IMG/VR virus record: IMGVR_UViG_2778261178_000002 | DNA: 36,637 nucleotides | Reading direction: 5' to 3' (one strand) | From: a virus | Taxonomy: Duplodnaviria > Heunggongvirae > Uroviricota > Caudoviricetes | Shown here: positions 1 to 36,055 of the stretch, in pieces | Position numbering within the stretch: position 1 is the stretch's first letter | Layout of the letters: the number at the start of each line of letters is the position of its first letter | The notes under the pieces: model-generated | Databases searched by the model: none | What the model saw: the letters and a program-made list of their open reading frames with translations, nothing else | Told to the model about the DNA's origin: nothing | Position numbers and translations under genes: made by a program

Positions 1-1362
1 ATGTTTAAACCGGAACTCCTTTCCCCGGCGGGAACGCTGAAAAATATGCGTTACGCTTTCGCTTATGGCGCAGATGCTGTTTATGCGGGCCAGCCGCGTT
101 ATTCCCTGCGTGTGCGCAACAACGAATTCAACCACGAAAATCTTCAGCTCGGCATCAATGAAGCCCACGCGCTGGGGAAAAAGTTTTATGTCGTGGTCAA
201 CATTGCACCGCACAACGCCAAGCTGAAAACCTTTATCCGTGACCTGAAACCGGTGGTGGAAATGGGGCCGGATGCGCTGATTATGTCCGATCCAGGGCTG
301 ATTATGCTGGTGCGTGAGCACTTCCCTGAAATGCCGATCCACCTTTCGGTGCAGGCTAACGCCGTGAACTGGGCGACGGTGAAATTCTGGCAGCAAATGG
401 GCCTGACCCGCGTGATCCTCTCTCGCGAGCTGTCGCTGGAAGAGATTGAAGAGATCCGCAATCAGGTGCCGGATATGGAGATCGAGATCTTCGTTCACGG
501 CGCGCTGTGCATGGCCTACTCCGGTCGCTGCCTGCTCTCTGGCTATATCAACAAGCGCGACCCGAACCAGGGCACCTGCACCAACGCCTGCCGCTGGGAG
601 TACAACGTCCAGGAAGGGAAAGAAGATGATGTTGGCAACATCGTACACAAGTACGAGCCGATTCCGGTGCAAAATGTTGAGCCGACGCTGGGTATCGGCG
701 CACCAACCGACAAAGTGTTTATGATCGAAGAGGCCCAGCGTCCGGGCGAGTATATGACCGCGTTTGAAGATGAGCACGGCACTTACATCATGAACTCGAA
801 AGATCTGCGCGCCATCGCCCATGTAGAACGCCTGACCAAAATGGGCGTGCATTCGCTGAAAATCGAAGGTCGTACCAAATCTTTCTACTATTGTGCACGC
901 ACCGCACAGGTTTACCGCAAAGCTATCGATGACGCCGCTGCGGGAAAACCGTTCGATACCAGCCTGCTGGAAACTCTGGAAGGTCTGGCGCATCGTGGCT
1001 ATACCGAAGGTTTCCTGCGTCGTCATACTCACGACGATTATCAGAACTACGAATACGGTTATTCAGTTTCTGACCGCCAGCAGTTTGTTGGTGAGTTTAC
1101 CGGTGAGCGCAAGGGGGACCTCGCGGCGGTAGCGGTGAAAAATAAATTCTCCGTTGGCGACAGCCTTGAGCTGATGACGCCGCAAGGCAACATTAATTTT
1201 ACCCTTGAGCACATGGAAAACGCCAAAGGCGAAGCTATGCCGATAGCACCAGGCGATGGTTATACTGTGTGGCTCCCGGTCCCGCAGGATCTTGAGCTCA
1301 ATTACGCGCTGCTGATGCGTAATTTCTCCGGGGAAACCACGCGTAATCCCCACGGTAAGTGA
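1..1362 (+). CDS. yegQ: U32-family peptidase-like protein YegQ/TrhP (tRNA U34 hydroxylation); host gene at left flank
   Basis: 453-aa ORF starting with ATG at position 1; sequence recognised as E. coli YegQ; normal-GC host DNA; lies immediately upstream of cyaR as in E. coli. Confidence 0.85.
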   Translation: MFKPELLSPAGTLKNMRYAFAYGADAVYAGQPRYSLRVRNNEFNHENLQLGINEAHALGKKFYVVVNIAPHNAKLKTFIRDLKPVVEMGPDALIMSDPGLIMLVREHFPEMPIHLSVQANAVNWATVKFWQQMGLTRVILSRELSLEEIEEIRNQVPDMEIEIFVHGALCMAYSGRCLLSGYINKRDPNQGTCTNACRWEYNVQEGKEDDVGNIVHKYEPIPVQNVEPTLGIGAPTDKVFMIEEAQRPGEYMTAFEDEHGTYIMNSKDLRAIAHVERLTKMGVHSLKIEGRTKSFYYCARTAQVYRKAIDDAAAGKPFDTSLLETLEGLAHRGYTEGFLRRHTHDDYQNYEYGYSVSDRQQFVGEFTGERKGDLAAVAVKNKFSVGDSLELMTPQGNINFTLEHMENAKGEAMPIAPGDGYTVWLPVPQDLELNYALLMRNFSGETTRNPHGK

Positions 1363-8722: not shown

Positions 8723-9838
8723 TCAAATAAAATTAAATAACTCATGTTCATCTATAGCTTTTGATCCAATTAAATTCGCAGCTTCTATGTCATTATCATT
8801 TGTTTCCGAAATAAGGAAAAATGAATCAATATTATTTTGTAAAATGATTTTTTTATGCTTCTTAAGCCATTGTAATTTACTTGTAGTGAACAACACTCGG
8901 CGCGGTAGAAGAATACGACTAAAAACTGAGGGGAGATACTCACTTCTATTAAATTGAACAAAAGGATCACCAAAAGAAAGGATAGTTAGATGATTAAATT
9001 TACCGTGCAAATTCAATTTTTCAGCTGATTTAGCTATGCCACTTGGCAAAAAAACACCTGTCTTGATACCTTTACGTAAAGCAGTAACAGCCATCATTTT
9101 ATCGAAAGCAGTTCCACCAAAGAGCAATGAATACCCTTTCTTAACAGAAATATCAATAGTATCAAGGACAGCTTGCTTTTCTATATCGCTAGGTGATGTA
9201 CTCGAAATTATAGAAAGATCAAAGTCAGTAAATAGCTGCCCAGTATAATAAAGATTTTTGCTTGATAAAGTTGAAAGTTTTACCGGAAAGCTTTTATCAT
9301 CACGTCGAATTTCGGACACATTTAGATCCTTTAGCGATGGGTAGCTATGGTTTGGTGTGACTTTTTCTCGTTTATTATTTTTTGATGCTTGCGGGCTAAA
9401 AACCAAAATCTCATTTTTATTGTTAGATAGAGAATCTTGTATCATTTTTTTTACAATTTCCCAATCAAGACCGCCGTGGCCACAACCTAAAGCTGGTAGA
9501 GTGATAATTTTACCGTTCTTATGCTCCAAATAATTCGAGAGCCAAACCAGACCTTTTTCTATATATTCATACTTGGATTTATTTTTCCAATGATCCTTAG
9601 TAGGAAAATTTATGATCTCTATATCATTACCATACGCATCAGCATTTTTCCAAACTGCTGGTTTACCTGGGGATATGTCTCCTTTTTTACATAGCAATAC
9701 GTACTCATCATACATTTCGGGAAACTTGTTTTTAAAAGCAAAAGCTACCCCTGCCCCCATTACACCAACACAATTAACTGTATTGATTCTAATGTCAGCA
9801 GCATAATCAAAAAAATCACCATCAACGAATCTAATCAT
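8723..9838 (-). CDS. Macrodomain (ADP-ribose-binding/hydrolase, DarG-like N-terminus) fused to a C-terminal DprA/SMF-like domain; putative antitoxin/sensor partner
   Basis: N-terminus carries macrodomain motifs (NTVNCVGVMGAGVAFAF; ITLPALGCGHGG); C-terminus has a DprA-like glycine-rich stretch (LLFGGTAFDKMMAVTALRKG...FLPSGIAK); ATGA overlap with the upstream gene; AT-rich. Confidence 0.55.
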   Translation of the reverse strand: MIRFVDGDFFDYAADIRINTVNCVGVMGAGVAFAFKNKFPEMYDEYVLLCKKGDISPGKPAVWKNADAYGNDIEIINFPTKDHWKNKSKYEYIEKGLVWLSNYLEHKNGKIITLPALGCGHGGLDWEIVKKMIQDSLSNNKNEILVFSPQASKNNKREKVTPNHSYPSLKDLNVSEIRRDDKSFPVKLSTLSSKNLYYTGQLFTDFDLSIISSTSPSDIEKQAVLDTIDISVKKGYSLLFGGTAFDKMMAVTALRKGIKTGVFLPSGIAKSAEKLNLHGKFNHLTILSFGDPFVQFNRSEYLPSVFSRILLPRRVLFTTSKLQWLKKHKKIILQNNIDSFFLISETNDNDIEAANLIGSKAIDEHELFNFI

Positions 9839-11169
9839 AAATTCTCCTCAAGATAAGTATACATCCTTGCTCTTAATTCTTCAATTTTATCAATCCCATC
9901 TTTTACCCATGCTGTATTAATGGAATTCATATCGCATTTAGCAATTAGAATTAACATATCTACATCAGATTTTATCTTTATTATTTTTTGCATTTGCTCT
10001 TCGTTTCTTTCATGGGCTATTATATCCCCAACAAGATCATCGTAAACTACGAGTGTCACAATTTGCCTTATTTCCCTATTGGATAAATCACCTATTTCTT
10101 CACACAAAATTCTTTTAAGCATAGGTAACGATTTAATAGGATGAGTATCATCTACTTTTTGTACTCCATCTTTCCATCTAGATTTAGGTCCTTTGCCAAT
10201 ATCATGTAAATATGCAGCGAGCGTTACAACAAGTCGTTCTCTTTCCGATAAGTCGTGGAATGCAGACTCCGTATTAAGTAAGCTGGCAACTCTTCTGCTA
10301 TGTGCCCCAACATCCTCTCGGTGAATAGGATTATCTGTTTCAAGGCCATCAATATCAGAAAGTTCTTTTATACACCCAAAGTTATTGCTAATCGCTTCTA
10401 ACACATCTGCGATATTTTTAAATCTAGGGTTTAAAGGTTTATTTTGTTTTATATCACTTATATATTTTTTAGTCTTCGCAAGGAGAATCTTAGGTCCTGT
10501 AACAATATTCACCCGGCCTACCACATTTAAATCATGAAAGTAATGATGATCAAATGATCTAGAATCACAACGAACATCAAAATTATTAAACCCATATTTT
10601 TTCAATAGCTGTGCAACATGCGTTTTCACGCAAAGATTCCAAACAACAATAAATGAAAAATTATTGAAGGGAATTTCATCATGAATAAGCAACTCTGCCA
10701 TTTTTTGCTGTTTTACTCCTTCGGTCTTTGGGATCCACACTCTACTGTCAATTGCATCCCAATTTAGCTTATTTAAATCATCAGCATTAGAGTAAAATGT
10801 TGGTGGCGTTAAAGTATTTGCAGAAGAATTTGAAAAAACTACTGATTTATCTTCTATCGCCTCTATTGGTATCGCAAGATATATAATTCCTTCTTGATCT
10901 ACGTTTTTTTTCTTAATAACATTAAGTAACATGGGAGATCTTTTAGTGAAGTAAAAAGGCACATAATCATGGACCACTCCACCTGGACCACAAGTGACCC
11001 TCATTTCACTACGACGGTGTTGTATTTCATTATTTGCTATATCTTTATGAATAATGCCTCTATTTGATTTTAAATTTGTACTAAGTAATCCATTTTTTAT
11101 AATTCCCTCAAGATTATCAATGTATGTAAAATGATAAACAAACCTATCTGAGTATTGTGGTTTTATCAT
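9835..11169 (-). CDS. DarT-like ADP-ribosyltransferase domain (DUF4433-type) fused to a C-terminal HD phosphohydrolase domain; putative toxin/effector
   Basis: N-terminus YHFTYIDNL (His13), HRRSE, HDYVPFYF, and a candidate catalytic Glu in MAELLIHD (about residue 159), resembling DarT; C-terminus has HD-domain motifs (H in GAHSRRV, HD in YLHDIGKG, D in VYDDLVGD); strong SD AAGGAG before the ATG. Confidence 0.55.
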   Translation of the reverse strand: MIKPQYSDRFVYHFTYIDNLEGIIKNGLLSTNLKSNRGIIHKDIANNEIQHRRSEMRVTCGPGGVVHDYVPFYFTKRSPMLLNVIKKKNVDQEGIIYLAIPIEAIEDKSVVFSNSSANTLTPPTFYSNADDLNKLNWDAIDSRVWIPKTEGVKQQKMAELLIHDEIPFNNFSFIVVWNLCVKTHVAQLLKKYGFNNFDVRCDSRSFDHHYFHDLNVVGRVNIVTGPKILLAKTKKYISDIKQNKPLNPRFKNIADVLEAISNNFGCIKELSDIDGLETDNPIHREDVGAHSRRVASLLNTESAFHDLSERERLVVTLAAYLHDIGKGPKSRWKDGVQKVDDTHPIKSLPMLKRILCEEIGDLSNREIRQIVTLVVYDDLVGDIIAHERNEEQMQKIIKIKSDVDMLILIAKCDMNSINTAWVKDGIDKIEELRARMYTYLEENL

Positions 11170-11581: not shown

Positions 11582-12109
11582 TTATTGCGGCATTTCCGGC
11601 CATTCAGGATTTGCAGGATCCACACGACTGACCAGAACGCTGTAGCGTTCCCAAGCCTCCAGCCGTGTGCGCTCCTCCTCTGTTGCCATGTTCAGTCTGA
11701 CCGCGCGCTCCAGCGGCAAAATCACGGATTCAGCATCTGCAAGAAGTCTGGCTTTCCGGTTTTCTGCCTGCTGCTGCAATTCCTCTGCCGTATAAATGCG
11801 TTTAATCACTTTTCCGTCCTTAAACATCCAGCCCCCTGAAATGTCCGCCCGTCGGTTAGCAGTAATATCCGCCACTTCAACAACACTTAATCCATCCGGT
11901 CTGATAGCTGTCACATCCTTTTCCACATAGCGGATGATATTATCCTTGTCGTACGCTATTTTTATCGTGTCATCAGCAAAATACTTTTGTTCTTCGTACC
12001 AGTTCTTACCATCTTCTGAAAAAAACCAGACAACATCAAAATCCCTTGTCAATTGATATTGTTCAACCGTTTTTGGATTACCTGCCGTTATATTTATCAA
12101 ATGCTGCAT
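11582..12109 (-). CDS. G: Tail fibre assembly chaperone gpG
   Basis: 175 aa, immediately downstream of H. Confidence 0.8.
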
Positions 12110-12112
12110 AAA

Positions 12113-14431
12113 TTATACCTGCGCCACGTTATACCAAGTCCCGTTAATGTATTTCTGCACCGGTCTGTAATATACGCCACCAATGTTATCGGCAGAGTTT
12201 GAGCCGGTATCCTGAACAATAATGCCGGAATATACACACCCGGACGGTGCCTGATGTGTCCATGTCATGCCATTGTTCGCAGGTTTGTATGTGGCAGCAC
12301 CACCAAGCCGAATATCCCGGACATAGCGTGAATCAAAGTTGCCATAGTTAGATGGTGATACCTGCCCGTTAACAGCAAAAGTGATGCTGTTATCTGTATT
12401 TCTCTGACTGTAAAAATGCCAGCCTGCATCATCACCTAATTCAGCCACCACCGGACGACTTGAGTTTCCCCACAAATTGAATGCGGCTTCCTTCGTGGAT
12501 GTATTACTGCTGCTGACCGTGAATTTTTTCCCGCTACCGGCACGTACTTTGGTACTTGAGACAATATCACCAGTAACACTCAGGCCATGCCCCATTGATA
12601 CAGCACCCGTGGCATCATTTATAATCAGTGGTCTTAAATTATTATAAGTGCCTAATCTGTCACCTGATTTAGTCAACATAAAATAAGTGCTGCTGCCATC
12701 ATTCCTGATAAAGAATCCATAATTGCCATAAGCAATGCGCAGACCATTAGCACTGCTTGATGTAATCTCACCTCTTGAACGGAGACCATAAGCGGAGCTG
12801 AGTGATAATTCTTCCTGAGCATCAGTATTACCAGTCGCCCAGCGAACTACCCCGCCCTGTACTGTTTCATGCCAGATAGTGTCTCCTTCTCCACCACGAA
12901 ACTTTCTGAGATATTTTTTGCCGCCTCTGGTGCCTGAACATAAGGCCGTAGACATATAGGCATTCTGGCTTCCGCCATCCTGATTAATCGTTCCGGTCAT
13001 TGAGTCGCCCTGACGATTCCAGTCACGACGCCAGCCGGGGGAGTAGCCGTCCCCATGATTAATGTAAGTGAATTGCGCGCTGGTTGTACCGCCACCACTT
13101 GATGTTGTCGGCGTGGTCACTCGGATAGTGATTGCAGATTTAGTTCCCATGACCTCGACGACACAACCAGCCAGGTGGATATCACCACATCCGGTATCCG
13201 TAATGATTTTGTTATTTGCATATGACCAGGAGCCTTTGCACATCCAGTACGGATGATTAAATGCACCACGGGAATCCAGCCATTCAATAAACTGAGCGGT
13301 TGTCCAGTTTCCGGCTTCAGTGCTCAAAGCGCCGCTATAAGCACGACAGGCACCGATATTTTTCGTGAAGGTATCCTTTCCCGGAATATCCGCACCGTTC
13401 TGATCTTTCTGAAGACGTTTTTCAGCATTGTCATAGGCAGACTTCACTGCTTTTGGCGTTGCCGCGAGGGTTTCAGAATCACTGTTGGTGGCGCTACTGA
13501 GCTGGACAAGACCTTTTCGCGCCGTGGTGGCATCCTGTGCAGTGTATTTCCCGTTAGCAAGGTCATACGCTGTCTTAACCGCCTTTGGTGTTGCCGCAAG
13601 CGTTTCAGAATCGCTGTTGGTGGCGCTACTGAGCTGGACAAGACCTTTTCGCGCTGTAGTGGCGTCCTGTGCAGTGTATTTCCCGTTAGCAAGGTCATAC
13701 GCGGCCTTTACCGCTTTCGGCGTTGCGGCGAGCGTTTCAGACGTGCTGTTAGTCGCACTACTGAGCTGAACAAGGCCTTTTCGCGCGGTGGTGGCATCCT
13801 GCGCGGTATATTTCCCGTTAGCAAGGTCATAGGCGGTCTTTACCGCTTTCGGCGTTGCAGCCAGTGTTTCAGACGTGCTGTTGGTCGCACTGCTTAACTG
13901 AGTAAAACCTTTTGCGGTCAGCGAGGCGTCAGGGTGACGTCGTGACTGTTCATGTTCTGCAATTTTGTCATCAACGTAATCCTGCGTCGCCATCACCGTT
14001 GTGGTGTCAATGGTCAGCGCCACCGAGGCCACACTGCTGACGATGATGACCATGCGACAGGTCTGCGAACGCCCTGAGCCTTCGGCAAGAGCTGGCTTAT
14101 AACTTTCGGCCATGTTCGCCACGGCAATTAACGTTCCCGCATCATCGTACAGGCCAAGCTCACGCATCCAGAAACCGCCCACCTCCGGCGGAATAACCAG
14201 CTCTGCGATAATATAATTACTGTTTCGTTTGTCCTGGCTGATTTTGTTCAGCGTATGTCGCCAGACTTCGTGGATAAGCCCGGTCTGTCCGGCATCCGGG
14301 ACAGGCAATTTACCACCGCCATCCCCGACGGCCATCGTGGTAATGTTGACCTTCCGCCCTCCCGGTGCGGTTGCCGCTGCCAGCTTTGCTGCACCGGCAG
14401 TGGTGATAACGGTTCTGAATTTTGTGCTCAT
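12113..14431 (-). CDS. H: Tail fibre protein gpH, with internal tandem repeats
   Basis: 772 aa; position between I and G; contains about four tandem 44-aa repeats. Confidence 0.85.
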   Translation of the reverse strand: MSTKFRTVITTAGAAKLAAATAPGGRKVNITTMAVGDGGGKLPVPDAGQTGLIHEVWRHTLNKISQDKRNSNYIIAELVIPPEVGGFWMRELGLYDDAGTLIAVANMAESYKPALAEGSGRSQTCRMVIIVSSVASVALTIDTTTVMATQDYVDDKIAEHEQSRRHPDASLTAKGFTQLSSATNSTSETLAATPKAVKTAYDLANGKYTAQDATTARKGLVQLSSATNSTSETLAATPKAVKAAYDLANGKYTAQDATTARKGLVQLSSATNSDSETLAATPKAVKTAYDLANGKYTAQDATTARKGLVQLSSATNSDSETLAATPKAVKSAYDNAEKRLQKDQNGADIPGKDTFTKNIGACRAYSGALSTEAGNWTTAQFIEWLDSRGAFNHPYWMCKGSWSYANNKIITDTGCGDIHLAGCVVEVMGTKSAITIRVTTPTTSSGGGTTSAQFTYINHGDGYSPGWRRDWNRQGDSMTGTINQDGGSQNAYMSTALCSGTRGGKKYLRKFRGGEGDTIWHETVQGGVVRWATGNTDAQEELSLSSAYGLRSRGEITSSSANGLRIAYGNYGFFIRNDGSSTYFMLTKSGDRLGTYNNLRPLIINDATGAVSMGHGLSVTGDIVSSTKVRAGSGKKFTVSSSNTSTKEAAFNLWGNSSRPVVAELGDDAGWHFYSQRNTDNSITFAVNGQVSPSNYGNFDSRYVRDIRLGGAATYKPANNGMTWTHQAPSGCVYSGIIVQDTGSNSADNIGGVYYRPVQKYINGTWYNVAQV
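13424..13909. repeat. Tandem 132-bp coding repeats (about 3.7 copies) inside tail fibre gene H
   Basis: Repeated peptide GLVQLSSATNS[TD]SETLAATPKAVK[TAS]AYDLANGKYTAQDATTARK; the same periodicity shows in overlapping shadow ORFs on both strands. Confidence 0.8.
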
Positions 14432-14441
14432 TATTCCTCAC

Positions 14442-14972
14442 TTATCCGGGGTAAACCGTAATTACATCGCCGTCGTAAGCCACACCACCGGCGAACAGGT
14501 AGCCGGGAATGTCCCGGGTAATGTTCAGGCCGATAAGGTGGCGGCTTGCAGGTTTGGCATCAGCAATCAGCCGTTCCATTTCCTGATACATTGCCTCTGT
14601 GATGCCGCTTTCCAGTACACCAATATCAAGCCGGAAGGTGCCTGGCGGGTCACTGTTTTCCCACCACTCCGTCACGTTGATGAGATAGCCGAGCGGCTCC
14701 ACCACACGCCGGATTGCACCGATAGTGCCCTTATGACAGTGGATGAAATAGGCATCGCGGATAACGGCGCGTTTTGTCGCTTCCGGCCACTTTTCATCCC
14801 ACCTGTCGACCGAAAACGCCCACGCCAGCCACGGCAGCAGATTTGCCGGACAGGTATCCGGGTTCCACAGTTCACGAATCCTGACCGGCGTTTTTTCAAT
14901 TTCCGCACAGGCTTTTGCGGCAGCAATTTCAAGCGGTGATGAGCCGGTCGGCAGCAGTCGCGAATCACTCAT
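14442..14972 (-). CDS. I: Baseplate assembly protein gpI
   Basis: 176 aa, position as in P2. Confidence 0.8.
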   Translation of the reverse strand: MSDSRLLPTGSSPLEIAAAKACAEIEKTPVRIRELWNPDTCPANLLPWLAWAFSVDRWDEKWPEATKRAVIRDAYFIHCHKGTIGAIRRVVEPLGYLINVTEWWENSDPPGTFRLDIGVLESGITEAMYQEMERLIADAKPASRHLIGLNITRDIPGYLFAGGVAYDGDVITVYPG

Positions 14973-15873
14973 CCGAGCCTCCGGTCACGACGCGGTATTC
15001 GGTACAGAAAGACGCCTGCGTACTGTTGAGCACGATGTCGGTCAGCGGTGCAGTCAGTTCGACACGCTGCACGCCTTCCACATGCAAAGCGGCATAAATG
15101 GCAGACAGACGGATGTCACGCCCCAGCCGGTGCTGTGCCGTGATGTACGCTTCCAGTTTTTTCACGGCAGCAGCGCGTATGGGTTCGCTTTCGGGACCAG
15201 GGTAAAGGTAAAGCGTGGCGTTTATCTGGTATTCAACGATGGCGGCAGACTGCACGGTCACGCGGTCGGCCACCGGCCTGACGTCCTCGCCATTAAGGGC
15301 GTTACGCACCACCGCCAGCAGGTCTTCGGATGCGACACCGTTATTTTCACGTGACAGCACAGAGATGGTGACGCAGGCCGGAGACGGACTGGTGACAGAA
15401 ATATCCGCGACACGCCCGTCGGCACTGCGACCATGATACTGATAGGCCCCCACCGACCCGGCGACGCTTAAACCTTCAAACGCCTGCTGAATACGCAGAC
15501 GATAATCCGTGTCAGATTCCATCACTGCCGGTGTCGGCGGGAGGGTCGAATCATCTGCCGGGGTGATAATCAGGCGCGTGGTGTTGTAATTGGCACCAAT
15601 CACATCAAGGTCATTACCGGCGGCACAGGCCAGCATTACCGCCCGTGCGGCCTCATTCACACGCTGACGCCAGATAAGCTCACGATAAGCATTTTCCTCC
15701 AGCAGTTTGACGAGAGGCTCGGATTCCAGCGTCAGGGTACGGGCGACCGCCTCCTGCTGGTCTTCCGGGTAAAGGGAAATCAGTGTCGCCTTGCGTTCGG
15801 CAAGAATGGTTTCAAAGTCCAGCTCCTCGACCACATCCGGTACGGGTAGCTGGTTCAGGTCGATAATCGGCAT
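14965..15873 (-). CDS. J: Baseplate assembly protein gpJ
   Basis: 302 aa, position as in P2. Confidence 0.8.
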   Translation of the reverse strand: MPIIDLNQLPVPDVVEELDFETILAERKATLISLYPEDQQEAVARTLTLESEPLVKLLEENAYRELIWRQRVNEAARAVMLACAAGNDLDVIGANYNTTRLIITPADDSTLPPTPAVMESDTDYRLRIQQAFEGLSVAGSVGAYQYHGRSADGRVADISVTSPSPACVTISVLSRENNGVASEDLLAVVRNALNGEDVRPVADRVTVQSAAIVEYQINATLYLYPGPESEPIRAAAVKKLEAYITAQHRLGRDIRLSAIYAALHVEGVQRVELTAPLTDIVLNSTQASFCTEYRVVTGGSDE

Positions 15874-15877
15874 GGTT

Positions 15878-16225
15878 TCAACTCACAGGGATGGTTAACG
15901 AAAGTGGCTGGCCGGTGTCGTTGTGCTGGCCGGTCAAAGTGACAGTCATTCGCCCGTCAAAACTGCGTTCAGTGGTGACGGATGACAGGGTGACGCGGGG
16001 TTCCCATTTCAGCACCGCCATGTAACAGGCGACCTTAATCTGCAACTCAAGCGCCGGGGTCTGCGGCTGGTCAATCATTGATGCCAGCAACGAGCCGTAA
16101 TCACGACGCATCACCCGTGAGCCGACCGGTGTGCGCAGGATATCGCCGATACTCTGGCTGATATGCTCAAGGTCAGTGACAGTCAGGCCATCACTGCGAT
16201 TCATTCCGAGATAACGCGCAGTCAT
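15878..16225 (-). CDS. W: Baseplate protein gpW (T4 gp25-like)
   Basis: 115 aa, position as in P2. Confidence 0.8.
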   Translation of the reverse strand: MTARYLGMNRSDGLTVTDLEHISQSIGDILRTPVGSRVMRRDYGSLLASMIDQPQTPALELQIKVACYMAVLKWEPRVTLSSVTTERSFDGRMTVTLTGQHNDTGQPLSLTIPVS

Positions 16226-20390: not shown

Positions 20391-21134
20391 TTAACTGGCT
20401 TTCTTTTTCGGGCGTCCACGTTTTGCCGGTGTCACGCTCCGGGTCTTATGCGGGGCGCGGGTGGCCGCTTTTGGCTGCGGCTCCGGCTTCGGTTTCAGCT
20501 CCCGCTCCAGTCGTTCAATCTCTTTTTTGACGCCTGCCTGACAGTCGAGCTGTGTCGCACGTTGCAGGTGCGACAGCGCACCGGCGGCATCACCAGCGTC
20601 ACGCAGAAACAGACCGGTGATTTTGTGCAGCTTTGCGCGCACTTCATCAGGCATGTCAGCCGTGGCGGTCAGTTCAAGGGTCTCCGTCAGCAGGCGGGTA
20701 TCCACAGACTCACCGGCAGCGTGAGCGCGCATGGCCGCGAGCGCCACCTCCTCGGTGAACATGTACGGCGGGGTGCGGCGGTGTTTACCCGGCATGGTCA
20801 GACCGTACTTCAGGGCATAACGGGCAATCTCCAGCGCACCGGCAATATCGCCGGTATCCAGACGCCACAGCATGACCGTCATCAGAATGTCATCCTGTGC
20901 ACCTTTGCCCTGGTCCAGCACGCCGTTCACCCACGGCAACCAGAACGGCAGCAGTTCGCGTTTTTTCGCGGCCTTCAGCTCTTTTGAATAAATCGCTTTC
21001 AGTGTGCGCTGGTCTGCGGCGAGCTTAACCAGCATCTGCTCATAGACAGTTGCATGTCGCAGCGGGGCGGCTTCCCGCTGCGCGGTCATCGCTGCCGAGA
21101 CCCGCATCATGTGGCGCTGTGCGGGACTCGTCAT
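20391..21134 (-). CDS. M: Terminase endonuclease/small subunit gpM
   Basis: 247 aa, between N and L. Confidence 0.8.
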   Translation of the reverse strand: MTSPAQRHMMRVSAAMTAQREAAPLRHATVYEQMLVKLAADQRTLKAIYSKELKAAKKRELLPFWLPWVNGVLDQGKGAQDDILMTVMLWRLDTGDIAGALEIARYALKYGLTMPGKHRRTPPYMFTEEVALAAMRAHAAGESVDTRLLTETLELTATADMPDEVRAKLHKITGLFLRDAGDAAGALSHLQRATQLDCQAGVKKEIERLERELKPKPEPQPKAATRAPHKTRSVTPAKRGRPKKKAS

Positions 21135-26421: not shown

Positions 26422-28392
26422 TTAAAGGTCATCAATTAAACCTAAAGGCAAACCGTCCTCACCAACCGAGCTATAATGAGCGATAATATTCGAAAGTTCA
26501 CCAGTAGAAAACGAATTAGGCAAATCATTATCAACTAATATAATCTGGCACGGAACATTTTTTCTTTCTGCTTTTTGAACTGTATTCAATAGTTGTTCAT
26601 AAATATTTTGATACTTCATCGGATCTGACATTCCCTCAAGGTCATCCTCGACTGCAAGAGTTTCTTTTGAATATTTTTCCTTGGTCTGTTTCCCTAAATA
26701 TTTGCCAACCGTATCAAATATCAAAAGTAAAGGATGGTTAACATTATGATCTATTGCATAATCAAGAATAGACAAAAGATACCCAATAGAAGAAATAGTT
26801 CTCAAACCTCCGGATGTTATTTTAAAATATTCTTTTTCTCTTATAACAGGAATGTAATAGCTTTCAGAGATTTTTATCCCCGTTCTGTTTTTGATATTAA
26901 TACCCTTCAAATACTGACTAAATCTATCACCCAAACCTTGTAAAATGCCCTCCATGCTAGGTGCGTTTTTCTTTAACGCCTCCAAGCGTTCAGTTAATGC
27001 TTCAATATCTTTTCTCAGTACCTGATACTTTTCAAGCAGTTCCTCTTGCTGGTTTCTAACCTTCAAATCTTTTACTAACTGCTCCCTAACCTTCTCATTT
27101 TTTGATATCTCTTTAATATAAAAATCTCTCTGAGTCAAGAATGGTGTAATCATTGACTGGCTTTCTTCGTCAATCAATTCTCTCAACTCGTCAAGTCGTT
27201 CATCTAATTCTTTTTTATAACCTGATTCTTTTTTTAATTTAAATGACATTTCTGAGATCATGTCATTAATATTTCGTCTACGTCGACTAAGTGAATTCAA
27301 CTCTTCATTAAGATCTTTTTCTGATGAAATTTCAAATGGAAAATCAGAATCATCTATTTTAATGTGGCTATCACAGATTGGACAGGAAAATATTTCCTTA
27401 TCCAATACACCAATGCGAGAATTTGCTGTTTTAATCGCTTTAAGTTTTTCAATATCATTATCATAGTCATTTTTTAACCGCGAATATTTATCAATCTTAT
27501 CCTCAAGCGCACTAATATTTAATATGCACTCTTTGTATTTAAGCGAAATAAAATTGTGAGCATCTTTAAATTCTGTATACTGTATGGAATCCGCTTTCAT
27601 ATTTTTATCGAGAGCAGACAAACCTGCAACAAGTTCTTCTAAAACAAGATCTATCCTATTAATCTCATCATCAATTGATTCAATTGTTTCATAGTCTGTA
27701 TCGCGAAGAAATTCAGATATTATCTGATACTTCCTATTTAATTCCGTTACTAAACTACTTTTTGCAGATATTTCACCTTGGAGTCTGGCGATGCTTTCAT
27801 CCAACACATTGAACATGTATTTAAAAACTTCTTTCGTAAATGCGTAGCGGGACCAATCACCCAATCGCAAGAAAGATTTACTACCAATATCATCCTGACT
27901 TACATAAACAAATTTATATATATTTCTAAAACTTAACCTGCGCATCTGTGAATGCGCTTTAGAAGGAGACACCTTAATTTCAATCTTTGGAAAATTAAGA
28001 CTATCAAGTAAAAACTCCGAAAAAACACCATCAACATTTGATAATGGGCTATAATTAGGAGCGTATTTTTTCGGAAAATGTTTATGTAAATCATCAAACT
28101 TACAACGATAAACTTCTATTGCTTTTTTATGATCATAGATATCTCTTACGATTGTGAATACAGTATCATTGATCACTACTTCAAGAGCAGCATAGTTTAC
28201 TGATGTTTTTATTTCATCTGCTAAATCTATAGAGCTAGCACCTAAAAGATAATTAATAAACTCCAGAATGCTTGACTTACCTGTGTCAGAGTCTCCGTAG
28301 ATAACATTGAGACCTTTATAAAAAGTAGTGACGTAGTTTTTACGAACACCAACAAGAATCAAACTATTGATATTGAGATATGATTTCATCAT
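26422..28392 (-). CDS. SMC/Rad50-like ABC ATPase with long coiled coil (Lamassu LmuB-like / ABC-3C ATPase)
   Basis: N-terminal Walker A GDSDTGKSS; central coiled-coil-like region with a CxxC (FSCPICDSH) hook-like motif; C-terminal ABC signature TSGGLRT and Walker B LLLIFDT; SD AAGGAGAA; ATGA overlap with the upstream gene; AT-rich. Confidence 0.6.
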   Translation of the reverse strand: MMKSYLNINSLILVGVRKNYVTTFYKGLNVIYGDSDTGKSSILEFINYLLGASSIDLADEIKTSVNYAALEVVINDTVFTIVRDIYDHKKAIEVYRCKFDDLHKHFPKKYAPNYSPLSNVDGVFSEFLLDSLNFPKIEIKVSPSKAHSQMRRLSFRNIYKFVYVSQDDIGSKSFLRLGDWSRYAFTKEVFKYMFNVLDESIARLQGEISAKSSLVTELNRKYQIISEFLRDTDYETIESIDDEINRIDLVLEELVAGLSALDKNMKADSIQYTEFKDAHNFISLKYKECILNISALEDKIDKYSRLKNDYDNDIEKLKAIKTANSRIGVLDKEIFSCPICDSHIKIDDSDFPFEISSEKDLNEELNSLSRRRRNINDMISEMSFKLKKESGYKKELDERLDELRELIDEESQSMITPFLTQRDFYIKEISKNEKVREQLVKDLKVRNQQEELLEKYQVLRKDIEALTERLEALKKNAPSMEGILQGLGDRFSQYLKGINIKNRTGIKISESYYIPVIREKEYFKITSGGLRTISSIGYLLSILDYAIDHNVNHPLLLIFDTVGKYLGKQTKEKYSKETLAVEDDLEGMSDPMKYQNIYEQLLNTVQKAERKNVPCQIILVDNDLPNSFSTGELSNIIAHYSSVGEDGLPLGLIDDL

Positions 28393-28901
28393 TTCTCCTT
28401 GAAAACTTGATTTATAACAGAGTTTAACTTAGAGGTAGGCAATGCTTGTAGCGGTAACAATGCTTCGGATAGTCGTTTTATTTCTTTAAAATATCCATCA
28501 GTCAATGAGCTAGCAAATTCCTTACCTTTTTCAGATAAAAATAATTTAACACTCTCATTATTTTTTTTCTCAGCTGAGAGCAATCCCCGCAATGACATAA
28601 TTTTTATAAGATATTTCACTTTGGAATTGTCGAATAAGATATCTACATTTGATGAAAAACTCTTTATTGTATAAGTTAACTGGGACTCGACACAAGCAGG
28701 CTTTTTCCCCGAAATTGTAAGAGCATAATCAATTTTTGATGGGTTTTTTATCAGATACATAAAAATTTGTATTTTATTAATATCTAATGATAACACTCCT
28801 TTTTTGCTATGAGATAATATAGATATAGCAATGGCAAGCATAGCAAAATTCAAGCTATACTCTTCATCAAGAGGAATATACGGCAAGTTATTTTTCTTCA
28901 T
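28389..28901 (-). CDS. Small middle-component protein (LmuC-like), function unknown
   Basis: 170-aa ORF translationally coupled on both sides (14-nt overlap upstream, ATGA overlap downstream); SD GAGGT; no recognisable catalytic motif. Confidence 0.4.
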   Translation of the reverse strand: MKKNNLPYIPLDEEYSLNFAMLAIAISILSHSKKGVLSLDINKIQIFMYLIKNPSKIDYALTISGKKPACVESQLTYTIKSFSSNVDILFDNSKVKYLIKIMSLRGLLSAEKKNNESVKLFLSEKGKEFASSLTDGYFKEIKRLSEALLPLQALPTSKLNSVINQVFKEK

Positions 28902-30111
28902 GATTACCTCGCCGTAATTGCTCCAAAGTTTCTACGCTGGTTTCAGATGACCAGACAATATCTCTATCATTTTTGTTAGCCAGTTGATGCAACATTCCTT
29001 TCTTATGTATCGTTTCTAAACTTTTTATAAGAGAATCTAACGACGACTTATCCTCTTGGGCTATTCGTCTATGAACAGCAGCAATAAATTTATCTGGGGA
29101 AATTGAATTCGCGATATATTGCTCATACTCTTCCTGGTAAATCTCCCTTATTTTAGAATACAAATGACCAAGTAGTTTCCTATCGTAATCACTCGTAAAA
29201 ATATTTCTCGCAAGCTCAGCATTATAATAATATTCCTTTGCATGCATAGCGATATCCTGATGTATATCTGCGACAATCATTTTTAAGACGAAATACTCAT
29301 TATCATATTGTTTCTCATCAGAAAAACGCTCAACACATATCTTCTTGGGTGCTTCTAAATTTATCTGCTGAATAAATTGCTTTACCGCAACAAACACTGT
29401 AGACGAGCTGTTTTCGGGCTTGCAAATTGAGCTATGCCCTTCATTAACTGCAATTGAGTTATTTCGTTCACTATCCATCGGTAATGCGCTTTTTTTATCA
29501 ACTATAGTGTCATGAGAACCATAAACATATCTAGTGATAGGAAGTTTTTTGCTACAATTTATCCAGCGCCTATTCAATGTATCAGTCGCTTCACTTAACA
29601 ATCCAAGATCTACTAACTGAGCATTTGAAGATACCATTGAAGTTATATTCGCCAATTTAGCACCAAAGTGAGGGACTGCTAACGAAATGAATCCAATTAT
29701 ATTAGATTGTTCCTCATGCTCAACTTTTTTTAGAATTAGATTTTTTGATATTAACCCCCCCATACTATGGGCAATTATTATAATTCGAGAGTAATCACTT
29801 AGCGTTACCCTAATCTCAGTATACAATAACTCAGCTATTTCATCAGTTGGTAAATTTCTCTCTAACTTATTTTTCTTAGAGAAAATACGAGCCAATAATC
29901 CTGACGTTTTAGCATACGTTTGTGTAAATTTTGTGAAATAGTTGAAACATGCAATATCAAATACATTGCCAATGTCTTCATCTTCTGCTAATAGTTTTGG
30001 AAATGAAGTTTCTTTATTAAAGTTCCATGTTTCCAAACCACCATTTAATCCATGTACAAATAGTATCAGGCTATCTTTTTTCTCGTGGCTTATCCATTCA
30101 ACCATGCTCAT
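28888..30111 (-). CDS. Alpha/beta-hydrolase (lipase/esterase-like Ser-Asp-His) effector with C-terminal helical domain (LmuA-like)
   Basis: N-terminal LILFVHGLNGG, nucleophile elbow AHSMGG, candidate Asp (GSHDTIVD) and His (NEGHSS); C-terminal about 170 aa with no catalytic motif; first gene of a three-gene operon. Confidence 0.55.
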   Translation of the reverse strand: MSMVEWISHEKKDSLILFVHGLNGGLETWNFNKETSFPKLLAEDEDIGNVFDIACFNYFTKFTQTYAKTSGLLARIFSKKNKLERNLPTDEIAELLYTEIRVTLSDYSRIIIIAHSMGGLISKNLILKKVEHEEQSNIIGFISLAVPHFGAKLANITSMVSSNAQLVDLGLLSEATDTLNRRWINCSKKLPITRYVYGSHDTIVDKKSALPMDSERNNSIAVNEGHSSICKPENSSSTVFVAVKQFIQQINLEAPKKICVERFSDEKQYDNEYFVLKMIVADIHQDIAMHAKEYYYNAELARNIFTSDYDRKLLGHLYSKIREIYQEEYEQYIANSISPDKFIAAVHRRIAQEDKSSLDSLIKSLETIHKKGMLHQLANKNDRDIVWSSETSVETLEQLRRGNHEEK

Positions 30112-30200: not shown

Positions 30201-32483
30201 CTACCACTCACGCTGTCTGTCAAAAAAGTCGATATCGTTATCAAATTTAAAACGCTTATGCCCAAAATCCAAAACAGCTCCGCGAGCGAGAGCTTCAAGC
30301 TCCCAATAACTAGCCTGAATGTCACTTTGTGCAAGAAGAACCTTAATTTTCGGGATAGTCTTTCTCTCCTGTCTTGTCAACCGGGCGGATGGGGCAGGAA
30401 AGTAGCTTCGACCATTGAAAGGGGTAAAGCTCTGCTGTGAACGATTACTGCATTTCAGTTCATTACTCAATAAGTCTCTAAGTACCTTCATAATGCCTGG
30501 CTCGGTCCAACTTAGAATCCCTTCATCTATTAAATTTAACACCGCTGCAGCATGCTCAGTCGGTGTGGGTGCCGGTAACGAAGTATCACCACCGTTGAGC
30601 TTTCCACAGTTATTGACAGGACTCCGAGGCGCGGCGATGCCGCTTTTTAAAGTCAAAGGCTCAACGACCGGAACTTTCGGCACAATGCGCCAGTCCGTCG
30701 TTCTGGTGATATGAATATGACGCGCGCCGAGATGCGGCGCGTAAATGCCGACCACTCTCTCGACCTCTTCCTCGTACTCGTTAACGTCATCCGACGGGCT
30801 ACGGGCGACCCTGACAGTCTGACAATCGCGCGGGACATTTGCCCCACCCTGCGCGCTGATATACAGCGCAAAATCGCCACTGTCTGCGGCGGCGCGTGCA
30901 GCCTCCACGCGTTCGTCAAATTCATCAGCAATGCTGACGCCGCGAGGCAATTTACGTAGCTCACGGTAAGCTCCCATTGTCGGCAGGCCAACCGTTTTAA
31001 ATTGCGGGATGCGCCACGTTGACGCCCATGCGGTAACAGCCGCGGCAGTATCTTTCAGCGGTCTGCCGGTATCGTTATCGAGCTGACCATCCAGTGCATA
31101 GCCGTCGATATTTTTTGAAATGTATTTCGCGATATATCCCGCAGCACCGCCCCGGTTAAGGTGTTTTGCCTGAAAACGGTTTCGCGCGGCTCCTCTTTCG
31201 TCGCCATCCTCTTTGAGCGCATAGCGACGCATGATTTCGATAATCTGGTTACGCTGGCGTGGATTACAAAAAAGCATCATATGCCAGTGCGGCGTTCCGT
31301 CGTGGTGTGGCTCGACGACTCGCAAACCGTAGACCTGTAAATCATTATCCTTGAATGCCGTGCGCATCAGGCTCCAGATACGGCAGAGATAACGCTGCGC
31401 ATCCTTTGGATTAAATGCCTCATCATTCCAGCCGTGATTAAGCTGGACGGTTTTATTTTCGCCTTTTCCAACCTGACGTGTCGGGTGATACTTTGACGGC
31501 GCGGTAAGCGTGATAAACATCCCCACATCACCCTCTGAGGCGGCGTAACGCTCAATACCGGCAATGGTGTTCATCAGCTCCATCCGGCGAATTTCAGGAT
31601 TAGAAATACTGCCCATCACCTTACTGATAAGGTCGATGCGTTCGCCGGTTTCCCTGTTTTCAAGGTCACACGATTTAAGAAACTCCAGATTTGCCTGGCG
31701 GCGCGCACGCACATCACGAATGGCATGTTTACTGGCATAAGGAGAACGGTCTTTATTGACCTCCCCGACAGCAATCAGTAACGCCTCATGCCAGCGCATA
31801 CGCTGGCCTTTAAGCTGATGAGTCCACCACTCATCGTTAAACAGGCGGGCAATGGCAGAATATGCCTGCCTCGTGGTCATCTGCCCTTTACGGTATTTTC
31901 TCCAGTAAAGCGGAGAAATATTGAAAGCACGTGCAGCGCCAGCAACATGACCATACAGGTGAGCCTGCGCCTCATCCGTAAACAGCGATTCTTTTTCGCC
32001 ATGCGCATCCACCCAGGCATCGCAGAGTTCCTCATACATCATGAAAAGCTGCGATGAGATTCGGGCGGCAAACTTTTTCAGCTCCTTGTCATTCATCCCC
32101 GGCAGGCGCGCATACTGGTCGCGCTCTGCCAGAAACAGCAACGACGCGTCGGTGTTCATTTCATGGCGCTGATTCACACGCTCAATGCGCGGCCATAAAC
32201 GACGCTGAAAAGTGGATGTGAGGAAATAAAACCCGTGCACCGGGCTTTTATTGCGCCGGATGTAGTCATAGCGTGAAGTAAACAGCGAGCGCAAAAAGTA
32301 AGGCAGGCGGTTAATCGTGGATAAAACACCTTGCACCTGACGCATCTCGTCACGTGTAAGGGGTCTTTCGCGCCCGACAGCCTCGCGTGGCGCGTTCCAT
32401 GCATAAGCACCGGTAAACGCCTTACCGGTGCCTGCGGCAAATGCTGACGGAGGGACAAAACGCCCGGAGGCTTTAACGGCCAT
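30201..32483 (-). CDS. A: Replication initiation protein gpA (rolling-circle nicking endonuclease)
   Basis: About 760 aa from ATG at 32481..32483 (MAVKASGRF...); the ORF track's 774-aa version uses an upstream TTG; position as in P2. Confidence 0.8.
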   Translation of the reverse strand: MAVKASGRFVPPSAFAAGTGKAFTGAYAWNAPREAVGRERPLTRDEMRQVQGVLSTINRLPYFLRSLFTSRYDYIRRNKSPVHGFYFLTSTFQRRLWPRIERVNQRHEMNTDASLLFLAERDQYARLPGMNDKELKKFAARISSQLFMMYEELCDAWVDAHGEKESLFTDEAQAHLYGHVAGAARAFNISPLYWRKYRKGQMTTRQAYSAIARLFNDEWWTHQLKGQRMRWHEALLIAVGEVNKDRSPYASKHAIRDVRARRQANLEFLKSCDLENRETGERIDLISKVMGSISNPEIRRMELMNTIAGIERYAASEGDVGMFITLTAPSKYHPTRQVGKGENKTVQLNHGWNDEAFNPKDAQRYLCRIWSLMRTAFKDNDLQVYGLRVVEPHHDGTPHWHMMLFCNPRQRNQIIEIMRRYALKEDGDERGAARNRFQAKHLNRGGAAGYIAKYISKNIDGYALDGQLDNDTGRPLKDTAAAVTAWASTWRIPQFKTVGLPTMGAYRELRKLPRGVSIADEFDERVEAARAAADSGDFALYISAQGGANVPRDCQTVRVARSPSDDVNEYEEEVERVVGIYAPHLGARHIHITRTTDWRIVPKVPVVEPLTLKSGIAAPRSPVNNCGKLNGGDTSLPAPTPTEHAAAVLNLIDEGILSWTEPGIMKVLRDLLSNELKCSNRSQQSFTPFNGRSYFPAPSARLTRQERKTIPKIKVLLAQSDIQASYWELEALARGAVLDFGHKRFKFDNDIDFFDRQREW

Positions 32484-32748
32484 ATGAGCCAAAAGCCTCT
32501 GAACAACGCCTGCTGAGTTGCTCAACCTGCGCGTTTAAATCAGCAAAAGACTTTGCGCTTCCGGTCAGAATATCGTGATGCATCAGGCCGGAAACGAGCT
32601 GGCTTAATTTCGGATAATAACCAACCACCGCCAGCCATTCCTGACCGGCGTTTTTACCGCTTTCCGCTCTCTTTTTCTCGTGGAGAATAAACTGAAAGCT
32701 GTCACTGGTAACGACATAACGTTCGCCAATTTCAATACGAATACTCAT
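32473..32748 (-). CDS. Hypothetical early protein (P2 orf83-like position)
   Basis: 91-aa ORF in the early operon upstream of A; no recognisable motif. Confidence 0.5.
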   Translation of the reverse strand: MSIRIEIGERYVVTSDSFQFILHEKKRAESGKNAGQEWLAVVGYYPKLSQLVSGLMHHDILTGSAKSFADLNAQVEQLSRRCSEAFGSYGR

Positions 32749-35041: not shown

Positions 35042-36055
35042 ATGGCAATCAAAAAACTCGATGATGGTCGATATGAAGTGGACATCCGCCCTACTGGACG
35101 TAATGGAAAACGCATCCGTAGGAAGTTTGATAAGAAAAGCGAAGCTGTCGCTTTCGAGAAATACACGTTGTACAACCACCACAATAAAGAATGGCTATCA
35201 AAACCAACAGACAAGCGACGTCTGTCGGAGCTGACACAGATCTGGTGGGATTTAAAGGGTAAACACGAAGAGCATGGGAAATCTAATCTTGGAAAAATTG
35301 AAATCTTCACAAAAATAACGAATGACCCATGCGCATTTCAAATTACGAAATCGCTTATCAGCCAGTACTGCGCCACCCGAAGAAGTCAGGGTATTAAACC
35401 TTCGAGTATCAATCGTGATTTAACATGTATTAGCGGCATGTTTACAGCCCTGATTGAAGCGGAGTTATTCTTTGGTGAGCACCCTATCAGAGGGACAAAA
35501 AGGCTTAAGGAGGAAAAACCAGACACAGGCTATCTCACGCAGGAAGAAATTGCCTTACTGCTTGCTGCTCTTGACGGCGACAATAAAAAGATTGCGATTC
35601 TTTGCCTGAGTACTGGAGCACGTTGGGGAGAAGCAGCTCGTTTGAAAGCAGAAAATATCATCCATAACCGCGTCACGTTTGTTAAAACGAAAACAAACAA
35701 ACCACGCACCGTCCCGATCTCAGAGGCTGTAGCCAAAATGATCGCGGATAACAAACGAGGTTTTTTATTCCCTGATGCTGATTACCCTCGCTTCAGACGA
35801 ACAATGAAAGCAATAAAACCGGATTTGCCAATGGGGCAAGCCACACATGCATTAAGGCACAGCTTTGCCACTCATTTCATGATTAATGGAGGAAGTATTA
35901 TCACGCTACAACGGATACTAGGTCACACGCGGATTGAGCAAACTATGGTTTACGCTCATTTTGCGCCAGAGTACCTTCAGGACGCCATTTCTCTTAATCC
36001 GCTAAGAGGTGGTACTGAGGCCGAGAGTGTCCACACAGTGTCCACAGTAGAGTAA
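35042..36055 (+). CDS. int: Tyrosine integrase
   Basis: 337 aa; C-terminal catalytic motifs (HALRHSFAT...LGHTRIEQTMVYAHF); adjacent to attR. Confidence 0.9.
   Translation: MAIKKLDDGRYEVDIRPTGRNGKRIRRKFDKKSEAVAFEKYTLYNHHNKEWLSKPTDKRRLSELTQIWWDLKGKHEEHGKSNLGKIEIFTKITNDPCAFQITKSLISQYCATRRSQGIKPSSINRDLTCISGMFTALIEAELFFGEHPIRGTKRLKEEKPDTGYLTQEEIALLLAALDGDNKKIAILCLSTGARWGEAARLKAENIIHNRVTFVKTKTNKPRTVPISEAVAKMIADNKRGFLFPDADYPRFRRTMKAIKPDLPMGQATHALRHSFATHFMINGGSIITLQRILGHTRIEQTMVYAHFAPEYLQDAISLNPLRGGTEAESVHTVSTVE

Follow-up and report, generated by a model that had tools for sequence, protein, structure and literature searches.

Gene H and its repeat array

The window analysed here is the whole 36,637-nucleotide stretch of IMG/VR virus record IMGVR_UViG_2778261178_000002 (Caudoviricetes), a P2-like Escherichia coli prophage with sheath, tape-measure, replication gene A and integrase genes, and the element under study is an array of four tandem repeat units within its tail fibre gene, H (12113..14431, minus strand). 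H encodes 772 amino acids (aa) over 2319 bp, a length that the original prediction for this DNA had given correctly, and its 100% identical counterparts in RefSeq genomes are annotated 'tail fiber protein'. Because its domains, its flanking genes and the local gene order all match P2, H can be assigned as a homologue of P2 gpH, the Peduoviridae type of tail fibre, though one with a mosaic distal part. Minus-strand open reading frames (ORFs) of 636, 348, 909, 531, 2319 and 528 nt follow each other in the P2 order V-W-J-I-H-G. Directly upstream of H lies the gene for the gpI baseplate protein (14442..14972, minus strand; PF09684 Tail_P2_I, E 1e-55), and directly downstream that for a gpG-like fibre-assembly chaperone (11582..12109, minus strand; PF02413, E 2e-34; PHROG 136 'tail fiber assembly protein'); at 531 and 528 nt, respectively, these two genes have the size and position of P2 I and G.

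The fibre protein consists of three parts. Its N-terminal baseplate-attachment part (aa 1-168; 13928..14431, minus strand) contains the PF12571 domain (aa 1-151, E 5e-58), whilst the distal part (aa 345-772; 12113..13399, minus strand) comprises a middle resembling Mu S/S', a gp34-type trimerisation domain (PF21446, aa 540-604) and a receptor-binding tip. The array sits between the two, in the proximal shaft. A protein hidden Markov model (HMM) built from the repeats resolved four units of 44 aa at aa 169-344, equivalent to approximately 13400-13927 on the minus strand, and each unit is 132 nt, or 44 codons, such that the gain or loss of a unit keeps the reading frame. In order from the N-terminus, and all on the minus strand, these are R1 (13796..13927; aa 169-212), R2 (13664..13795; aa 213-256), R3 (13532..13663; aa 257-300) and R4 (13400..13531; aa 301-344). 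A marker codon distinguishes the first two units, which are of the T type (NSTSETL), from the last two, which are of the D type (NSDSETL), giving the unit order T-T-D-D. The outer units have their own edges: R1 begins with ASLTAKGFT, and in its last 11 residues R4 departs from the unit pattern where it joins the distal module (SAYDNAEKRLQKDQ). In relatives, an R4-type terminal unit stands before several different distal modules.

At the nucleotide level, Tandem Repeats Finder placed 3.5 copies with a period of 132 at 13430-13885 (score 646, 87% matches), the sole array in the window with a period above 11, with all others scoring 42 or less. A gapless repeat finder returned three overlapping 226-nt copies starting at 13424, 13556 and 13688, a spacing of 132 nt, and together spanning 13424-13913. 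The original prediction had placed the repeats at 13424-13909, which describes the DNA-similar part well, whilst the protein units reach some 20 nt further on each side. It had also described about four repeats of 44 aa, and these correspond to four units of the family PF03406, "Phage tail fibre repeat", which matched four stretches of H with a total of 258 bits against a cut-off of 22. The best of these stretches (aa 170-210) covered profile positions 1-41 of 42, and each of the four units aligns with the model from one end to the other. The family, also catalogued as InterPro IPR005068 (Phage_fiber_2, 'Pf2'), was first noted in the lambda side tail fibre Stf and is present in E. coli prophage fibre proteins (PMC3368898). 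The units in the window show no family-level difference from it, and occur here head to tail inside a fibre protein with PF12571 and PF21446.

The repeats merit the description 'near-identical' in their peptide sequence only. R2 and R3 share 42 of 44 residues (95%, the highest peptide identity between units), and R2, R3 and R4 share 31-32 of the 33 residues of the core with one another, whereas DNA identity between units is 61-86%. The longest perfect in-register tracts between adjacent units measure 23, 38 (R2/R3) and 41 nt (R3/R4).

The gpH protein of P2 itself (AAD03286.1) is 669 aa long, in agreement with the approximately 670 aa given in the original prediction, and has two repeat units to the window's four. 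Both genes have the same position and encode a C-terminal tip of the same kind, followed by the gpG chaperone. Apportioned by domain, the window protein comprises 168 N-terminal, 176 array and 428 distal residues, and P2 gpH comprises 168, 88 and 413, respectively. The repeats thus do lengthen H, as had been proposed, with the two additional units providing 88 of the 103 extra residues, but the other 15 come from a replaced distal module. Identity to P2 gpH is 95% over aa 1-251 and 57% over aa 621-772, and the alignment offered no P2 counterpart for aa 252-620 of H, so that homology does not extend along the whole length. The middle of the P2 protein (aa 252-525) is unrelated to that of the window protein (aa 345-620), which is Mu S/S'-like. 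The Mu S'/S structures PDB 8ju3 and PDB 5yvq match H at aa 333-487 (E 1e-69) and aa 546-771 (E 8e-45), respectively. The H gene of the window is on these comparisons a mosaic gpH gene, of the sort already described in other P2-like phages (Garcia 2008, cited in PMC7460101).

Copy number in relatives and the mode of its change

Copy numbers were tallied from best-scoring or most similar matches, which do not form an unbiased population sample. Amongst isolated phages, two units are present in P2, Wphi and P2_AC1, three in P37, fiAA91-ss and PSP3, and four in a further four phages, whilst the best 120 protein clusters include proteins with 3, 4, 5 and 6 units. The N-terminal domain of H is 98-100% identical in 80 viral contigs, and 77 complete viral-contig ORFs with this degree of N-terminal identity have one (5 ORFs), two (7), three (1), four (51) or five units (13). 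Another 22 species-representative enterobacterial genomes encode between one and four units. Domains 73-79% identical to the gpH N-terminus were also found in assemblies labelled Vagococcus sp. WN89Y (L100), a Firmicute, and Chryseobacterium sp. 18061 (L106), a member of the Bacteroidota; these assemblies are probably contaminated or mislabelled.

Where the remainder of the protein is of equal length, gene lengths fall in exact 44-residue steps, for instance 625 and 669 aa in the P2 type, or 705, 749 and 793 aa. A pair of 772 and 816 aa has the same remainder as H of the window (428 aa), and more than one copy number was observed in 6 of 14 remainder-length classes. Several genes that are one unit apart have near-identical flanks: L042 (five units) and L065 (four) are 99.75% identical downstream of the array and 98.2% upstream, fiAA91-ss (three) and L070 (four) 99.3% and 98.8%, L090 (three) and L065 98.8% and 99.4%, and L056 (two) and L050 (one) 98.6% and 98.8%. 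It could be argued that the array is a fixed structural feature and that apparent differences only reflect different gene families, given that the units are positionally orthologous and that T-T-D-D is common to most of the 51 four-unit viral-contig genes. This reading is refuted by the range of one to six units, found among genes whose N-terminal domains are 98-100% identical, and likewise by variants whose flanks are almost the same and by identical units that arose in new duplications; we therefore consider it very improbable. An invariant copy number among homologues, which the original prediction had named as the outcome that would count against it, was accordingly not what was found. No explicit account of repeat copy-number polymorphism in gpH was found in the literature searched, from which older papers on P2 H and fibre motifs were outside the scope.

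The count of four in the window is likewise robust. An artefact of assembly, through collapse or expansion, was the other outcome that the original prediction had named as counting against it, and many database homologues are indeed 'partial' and cut at contig ends, the region being one that does break short-read assemblies. Yet at least 172 complete E. coli genomes align gap-free with the full 2319-bp H gene, which in two of these is 100% identical, and of 5,426 complete genomes of the species, 263 match a 1,001-bp probe centred on the array with its span unaltered. The same four units are present in the independently sequenced phages vB_YpM_115, vB_EcoM-12474II, P2_DC1 and P2_2H4, and as units differ at 14-39% of nucleotide positions, sequencing reads can tell them apart. 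With the array conserved in complete genomes and phage isolates alike, an assembly artefact is hardly credible. Separately, amongst the best 120 database proteins, a large share of the gpH homologues were partial sequences of 340-630 aa ending at a contig end, and E. coli genomes that matched the H gene or the array probe did so at a median of 2 and up to 12 places. Short-read assemblies seem often to break in or just past the array, which makes fibre lengths taken from draft genomes unreliable.

The order of unit types indicates how copy number has changed. The three-unit phages P37 and fiAA91-ss have the orders T-T-D and T-D-D, respectively, hence different units are missing and the two states arose in independent events. 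The majority of five-unit genes read T-T-D-D-D, and one reads T-T-T-D-D. In L042, R3 and R4 do not differ at any of 99 nt, and in L015 a single difference in 99 nt separates R2 from R3; these identical or near-identical neighbours are fresh duplications, in a unit-by-unit comparison that left locus L045 out. One-unit genes contain a hybrid unit that joins the head of R1 to the tail of P2's R2, which is the product expected from a crossover between misaligned units. Taken across some 87 genes, the patterns imply at least about eight independent copy-number events, and they fit unequal homologous recombination or replication slippage between units. An arrangement of another kind was observed in L033 (IMGVR_UViG_2693429734_000004), in which four units occur in the order T-D-T-D rather than T-T-D-D, and which points to rearrangement or between-unit conversion as opposed to simple gain or loss.

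The four units of the window are themselves old duplicates, and purifying selection acts on the peptide that they encode. In the H frame, comparison of the units over the core of 33 codons gave 68 synonymous and 27 non-synonymous codon differences, and the 19 nt differences between R2 and R3 are accompanied by 14 synonymous and only 2 non-synonymous codon changes. Compared with the same-position unit in related P2-like phages of E. coli and Yersinia, each unit differs at 1-14 nt, as against 19-51 nt from its neighbours, which dates T-T-D-D to before these phages diverged. The R1 of every relative is the positional orthologue of R1 here, with 5-13 nt differences in the E. coli and Yersinia phages and 29 in Salmonella phage PSP3. 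In the Yersinia phages vB_YpM_115 and vB_YpM_117, a gene with four units is 98.4% identical to H over 92% of its length. Variant sites are shared between units in a patchy manner, which suggests some gene conversion. Since the units are old and positionally orthologous, the array is moderately stable, and as they have diverged in DNA, turnover is slower than the term 'near-identical repeats' implies.

The original prediction had regarded in-frame repeats as a substrate for copy-number change, and the comparison between genomes supports it. Misaligned recombination or replication slippage between units would add or remove whole units, and perfect tracts of 23-41 nt are around or above the minimum for efficient homologous pairing in bacteria, such that the tracts between adjacent units could support further change in the array of the window. 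Our preferred reading, to which we assign a probability of roughly 85%, is that H carries four copies of PF03406 in a P2-type fibre shaft, that copy number changes by misaligned recombination or slippage, that the units are old, and that each forms a module of the shaft. Several points weigh against it. The mechanism of change in this particular prophage rests on comparison between genomes, and the structural role of the unit is one that we infer. The identity between units is low at the DNA level, and divergence between repeats should strongly depress the rate of recombination. Furthermore, four units are the prevailing state, at 56 of 87 E. coli-type genes, and the number of units goes largely with the type of distal module, from which it follows that changes are occasional and not frequent.

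Two established types of variable locus were also considered and rejected. Mu switches its host range by inversion of the G segment, and an invertible segment of the Mu G, P1 C or p15B Min type would have inverted repeats around alternative fibre 3' ends together with an invertase gene; no inverted repeat of at least 20 nt was found in 12000-16000, a comparison made with no search for an invertase gene, and a single H-G gene pair is present, followed by an unrelated DarT/DarG-like pair. A contingency locus or phase-variable tract, in which the gain or loss of short, near-perfect repeats switches frame or expression at a high rate, does not agree with a 132-nt unit that keeps the frame, with the divergence between units, or with the presence of the four-unit state in 263 genomes.

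Shadow reading frames and the surrounding prophage

As the original prediction had noted, repeat-bearing shadow ORFs occur on both strands across the array. Three are present, at 13253..13897 (plus strand, 214 aa), 13485-13769 (plus strand, 94 aa) and 13444-13698 (minus strand, 84 aa), and all were judged to be non-coding. They might be taken for real overlapping genes, in that they stay open for 84-214 codons and that in one antisense frame 54% of the between-unit differences are synonymous. No Pfam family reached threshold on any of the three, and the H frame is the best conserved, with 72% of differences synonymous as opposed to 0-16% in four other frames. The figure of 54% is consistent with an antisense frame whose wobble positions coincide with those of H, and such a frame is expected to look partly conserved without coding; long antisense open frames are, moreover, expected across a stop-free repeated sequence. 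We give overlapping genes next to no credence, and the shadow ORFs are regarded as non-coding by-products of the repeat.

The window spans essentially the whole prophage, since a host gene for a U32-family peptidase occupies its left end (1-1362, plus strand) and a tyrosine integrase gene lies near its right end (35042-36055, plus strand), with one host junction at approximately 1.4-1.9 kb. The slot that in P2 is taken by the non-essential Z/fun gene, between gene G and the sheath gene, here encodes a DarT/DarG-like pair (8723-11169, minus strand). The first member is a DarT-HD fusion of 444 aa (9835-11169, minus strand), with DarT at aa 12-203 and a C-terminal HD domain at aa 288-391, and it matches PHROG 32804 (unknown function) over its full length. 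The other is a macro-domain protein of 371 aa (8723-9838, minus strand) whose match to the PADLOC DarG profile is confined to the profile's first half. A second accessory-gene slot adjoins replication gene A (30201-32525) and is occupied by a three-gene defence cluster of the Lamassu / ABC-3C type (26422-30111, minus strand). This cluster encodes an LmuA-like protein that joins an N-terminal alpha/beta-hydrolase (DUF676) to a C-terminal CTD8 (28888-30111), LmuC / MC4 (28389-28901) and the LmuB ABC ATPase (26422-28392), all on the minus strand. A short repeat of the 6-nt unit GGCTCC (six copies, 76% matches) was also noted inside a late-region ORF at 20473-20508.

The unit as a probable shaft module and the possible exchange of distal parts

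Little is recorded on the structure or function of PF03406 (PMC3368898 and the literature searched). Single-sequence and profile searches of PDB sequences matched the unit only to residues 112-151 of Mu protein S, and in the cryo-electron microscopy study of Mu the fibre protein was modelled at the N-terminus only, with the crystal structure cited there covering the C-terminus (PMC11915804). An AlphaFold2 monomer model of aa 140-420, based on a 24-sequence alignment, had a mean predicted local distance difference test (pLDDT) score of 39 and a predicted template modelling (pTM) score of 0.19, a low confidence that is as expected for an obligate trimer modelled as a monomer.

A structural likeness is to T4 gp34, which has serial trimeric repeats whose conserved Gly starts a beta-strand and whose Ser/Thr-Pro caps a helix of an axial three-helix bundle (Granell et al. 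2017, PMC5537660). The unit of H has the landmarks of T4 gp34 and gp12 in the same order (K-G-L-V-Q-L ... A-A-T-P-K-A-V-K), although the T4 units are 33-47 residues long with variable loops and that of H is fixed at 44. Alignment of the unit with gp34 by hhalign was in register over 30 columns but weak (probability 18%, pairwise P 0.0013). PF03406 did not match gp34, of which the solved units are 744-776, 780-812 and 823-868, and the HMM of the unit gave a marginal match of 13 residues only (824-836). These results are no more than suggestive of a relationship between the unit of H and the alpha-helix-containing fibrous repeat of gp34 and gp12. Each unit would add one small trimeric module to the shaft, with copy number setting the length of the fibre, and receptor specificity would lie in the distal module and its chaperone. 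The position of the array, between the baseplate-binding and receptor-binding ends, likewise means that the number of units should change the length of the shaft, and copy number would in this way alter fibre length. Isolates with two, three or four units are known as infectious or inducible phages, hence those lengths work. One-unit variants keep essentially the same receptor-binding tip, and the comparisons lend no support to the change in host range that the original prediction had also raised.

Fibres that vary in length by whole repeats, with the end domains kept as in H, are known from other systems, the repeats of the adenovirus fibre shaft being one such length-variable repetitive shaft. 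Another is provided by the side fibres of enterohaemorrhagic E. coli prophages, in which collagen-like and coiled-coil segments vary by multiples of 3 and 7 residues (PMC3368898). The module of H is a mixed unit of 44 residues, in contrast to the motifs of 3, 7 or 15 residues in other length-variable fibres.

The repeat may also serve as a shared linker, or patch of homology, through which distal modules are swapped among P2-like, Mu-like and lambdoid phages, with change in copy number as a by-product. Resemblance to P2 gpH ends at aa 251, inside the array, after which the Mu S/S'-like module follows, and identity to genes of the P2_2H4 type ends at about aa 349, just past it. At least three different distal modules occur after the same terminal unit. 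The unit itself is found in Mu protein S / gp49 (PDB 5yvq, 8ju3, 9ki1), as a single copy to the window's four (residues 112-151, E 4e-19), and, at approximately 84% DNA identity, in lambdoid stfR-type genes annotated as 'prophage tail fiber N-terminal domain-containing'. Part of the 1-kb array probe was matched by 2,242 of 5,426 E. coli genomes, and those weaker matches that were sampled fell mostly on the repeat. In one E. coli lineage, gpH-like and Mu S-like fibre genes of prophages residing together are reported to have recombined (bioRxiv 10.1101/2022.05.07.487787). Nonetheless, differences of one unit between genes with both flanks 98-99.75% identical need events within the array, as do identical adjacent units, which module exchange does not produce, and another mosaic boundary, in genes of the 12474II and P2_DC1 types, lies at about aa 470, well outside the array. 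We hold a linker role to be a serious possibility of somewhat less than even odds, and one that complements, and does not exclude, a shaft of old PF03406 modules changing in number by misaligned recombination or slippage.

Copy number might further be adaptively tuned, with shaft length selected to suit the depth of O-antigen or capsule and one-unit changes altering adsorption or host range. Copy number is non-random across distal modules, as the P2 type has one or two units, the 'RLFLRNIGATNSTT' type mostly five and the others mostly four, and the plaque-forming or induced phages with two, three and four units indicate that these lengths are functional. The association with modules is equally explained by shared descent, genes one unit apart share essentially the same tip, and there is no sign that the length of the array and that of the distal module compensate for each other; we regard adaptive tuning as unlikely. 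Still more doubtful is an extended form of it, in which shaft length is an evolvable trait, recurrent one-unit changes of PF03406 tune the reach through O-antigen or capsule and shift adsorption and host range without touching the tip, and the synonymous scrambling of the units has been selected to keep such change slow.

Databases and the literature already cover the repeat family, the gene and its mosaic character, H being annotated in hundreds of genomes, and in a modular fibre shaft a polymorphic copy number is no surprise and ordinary for phage fibres. The finding matters little beyond annotation and engineering. In annotation, fibre gene lengths from draft genomes need care, as the region is a frequent break point of short-read assemblies. 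In engineering, the array is a natural junction at which distal modules could be grafted when P2 or tailocin particles are retargeted, and since natural phages with two to four units are viable and prophage genes have one to six, P2-type fibres should tolerate being made longer or shorter at this site.

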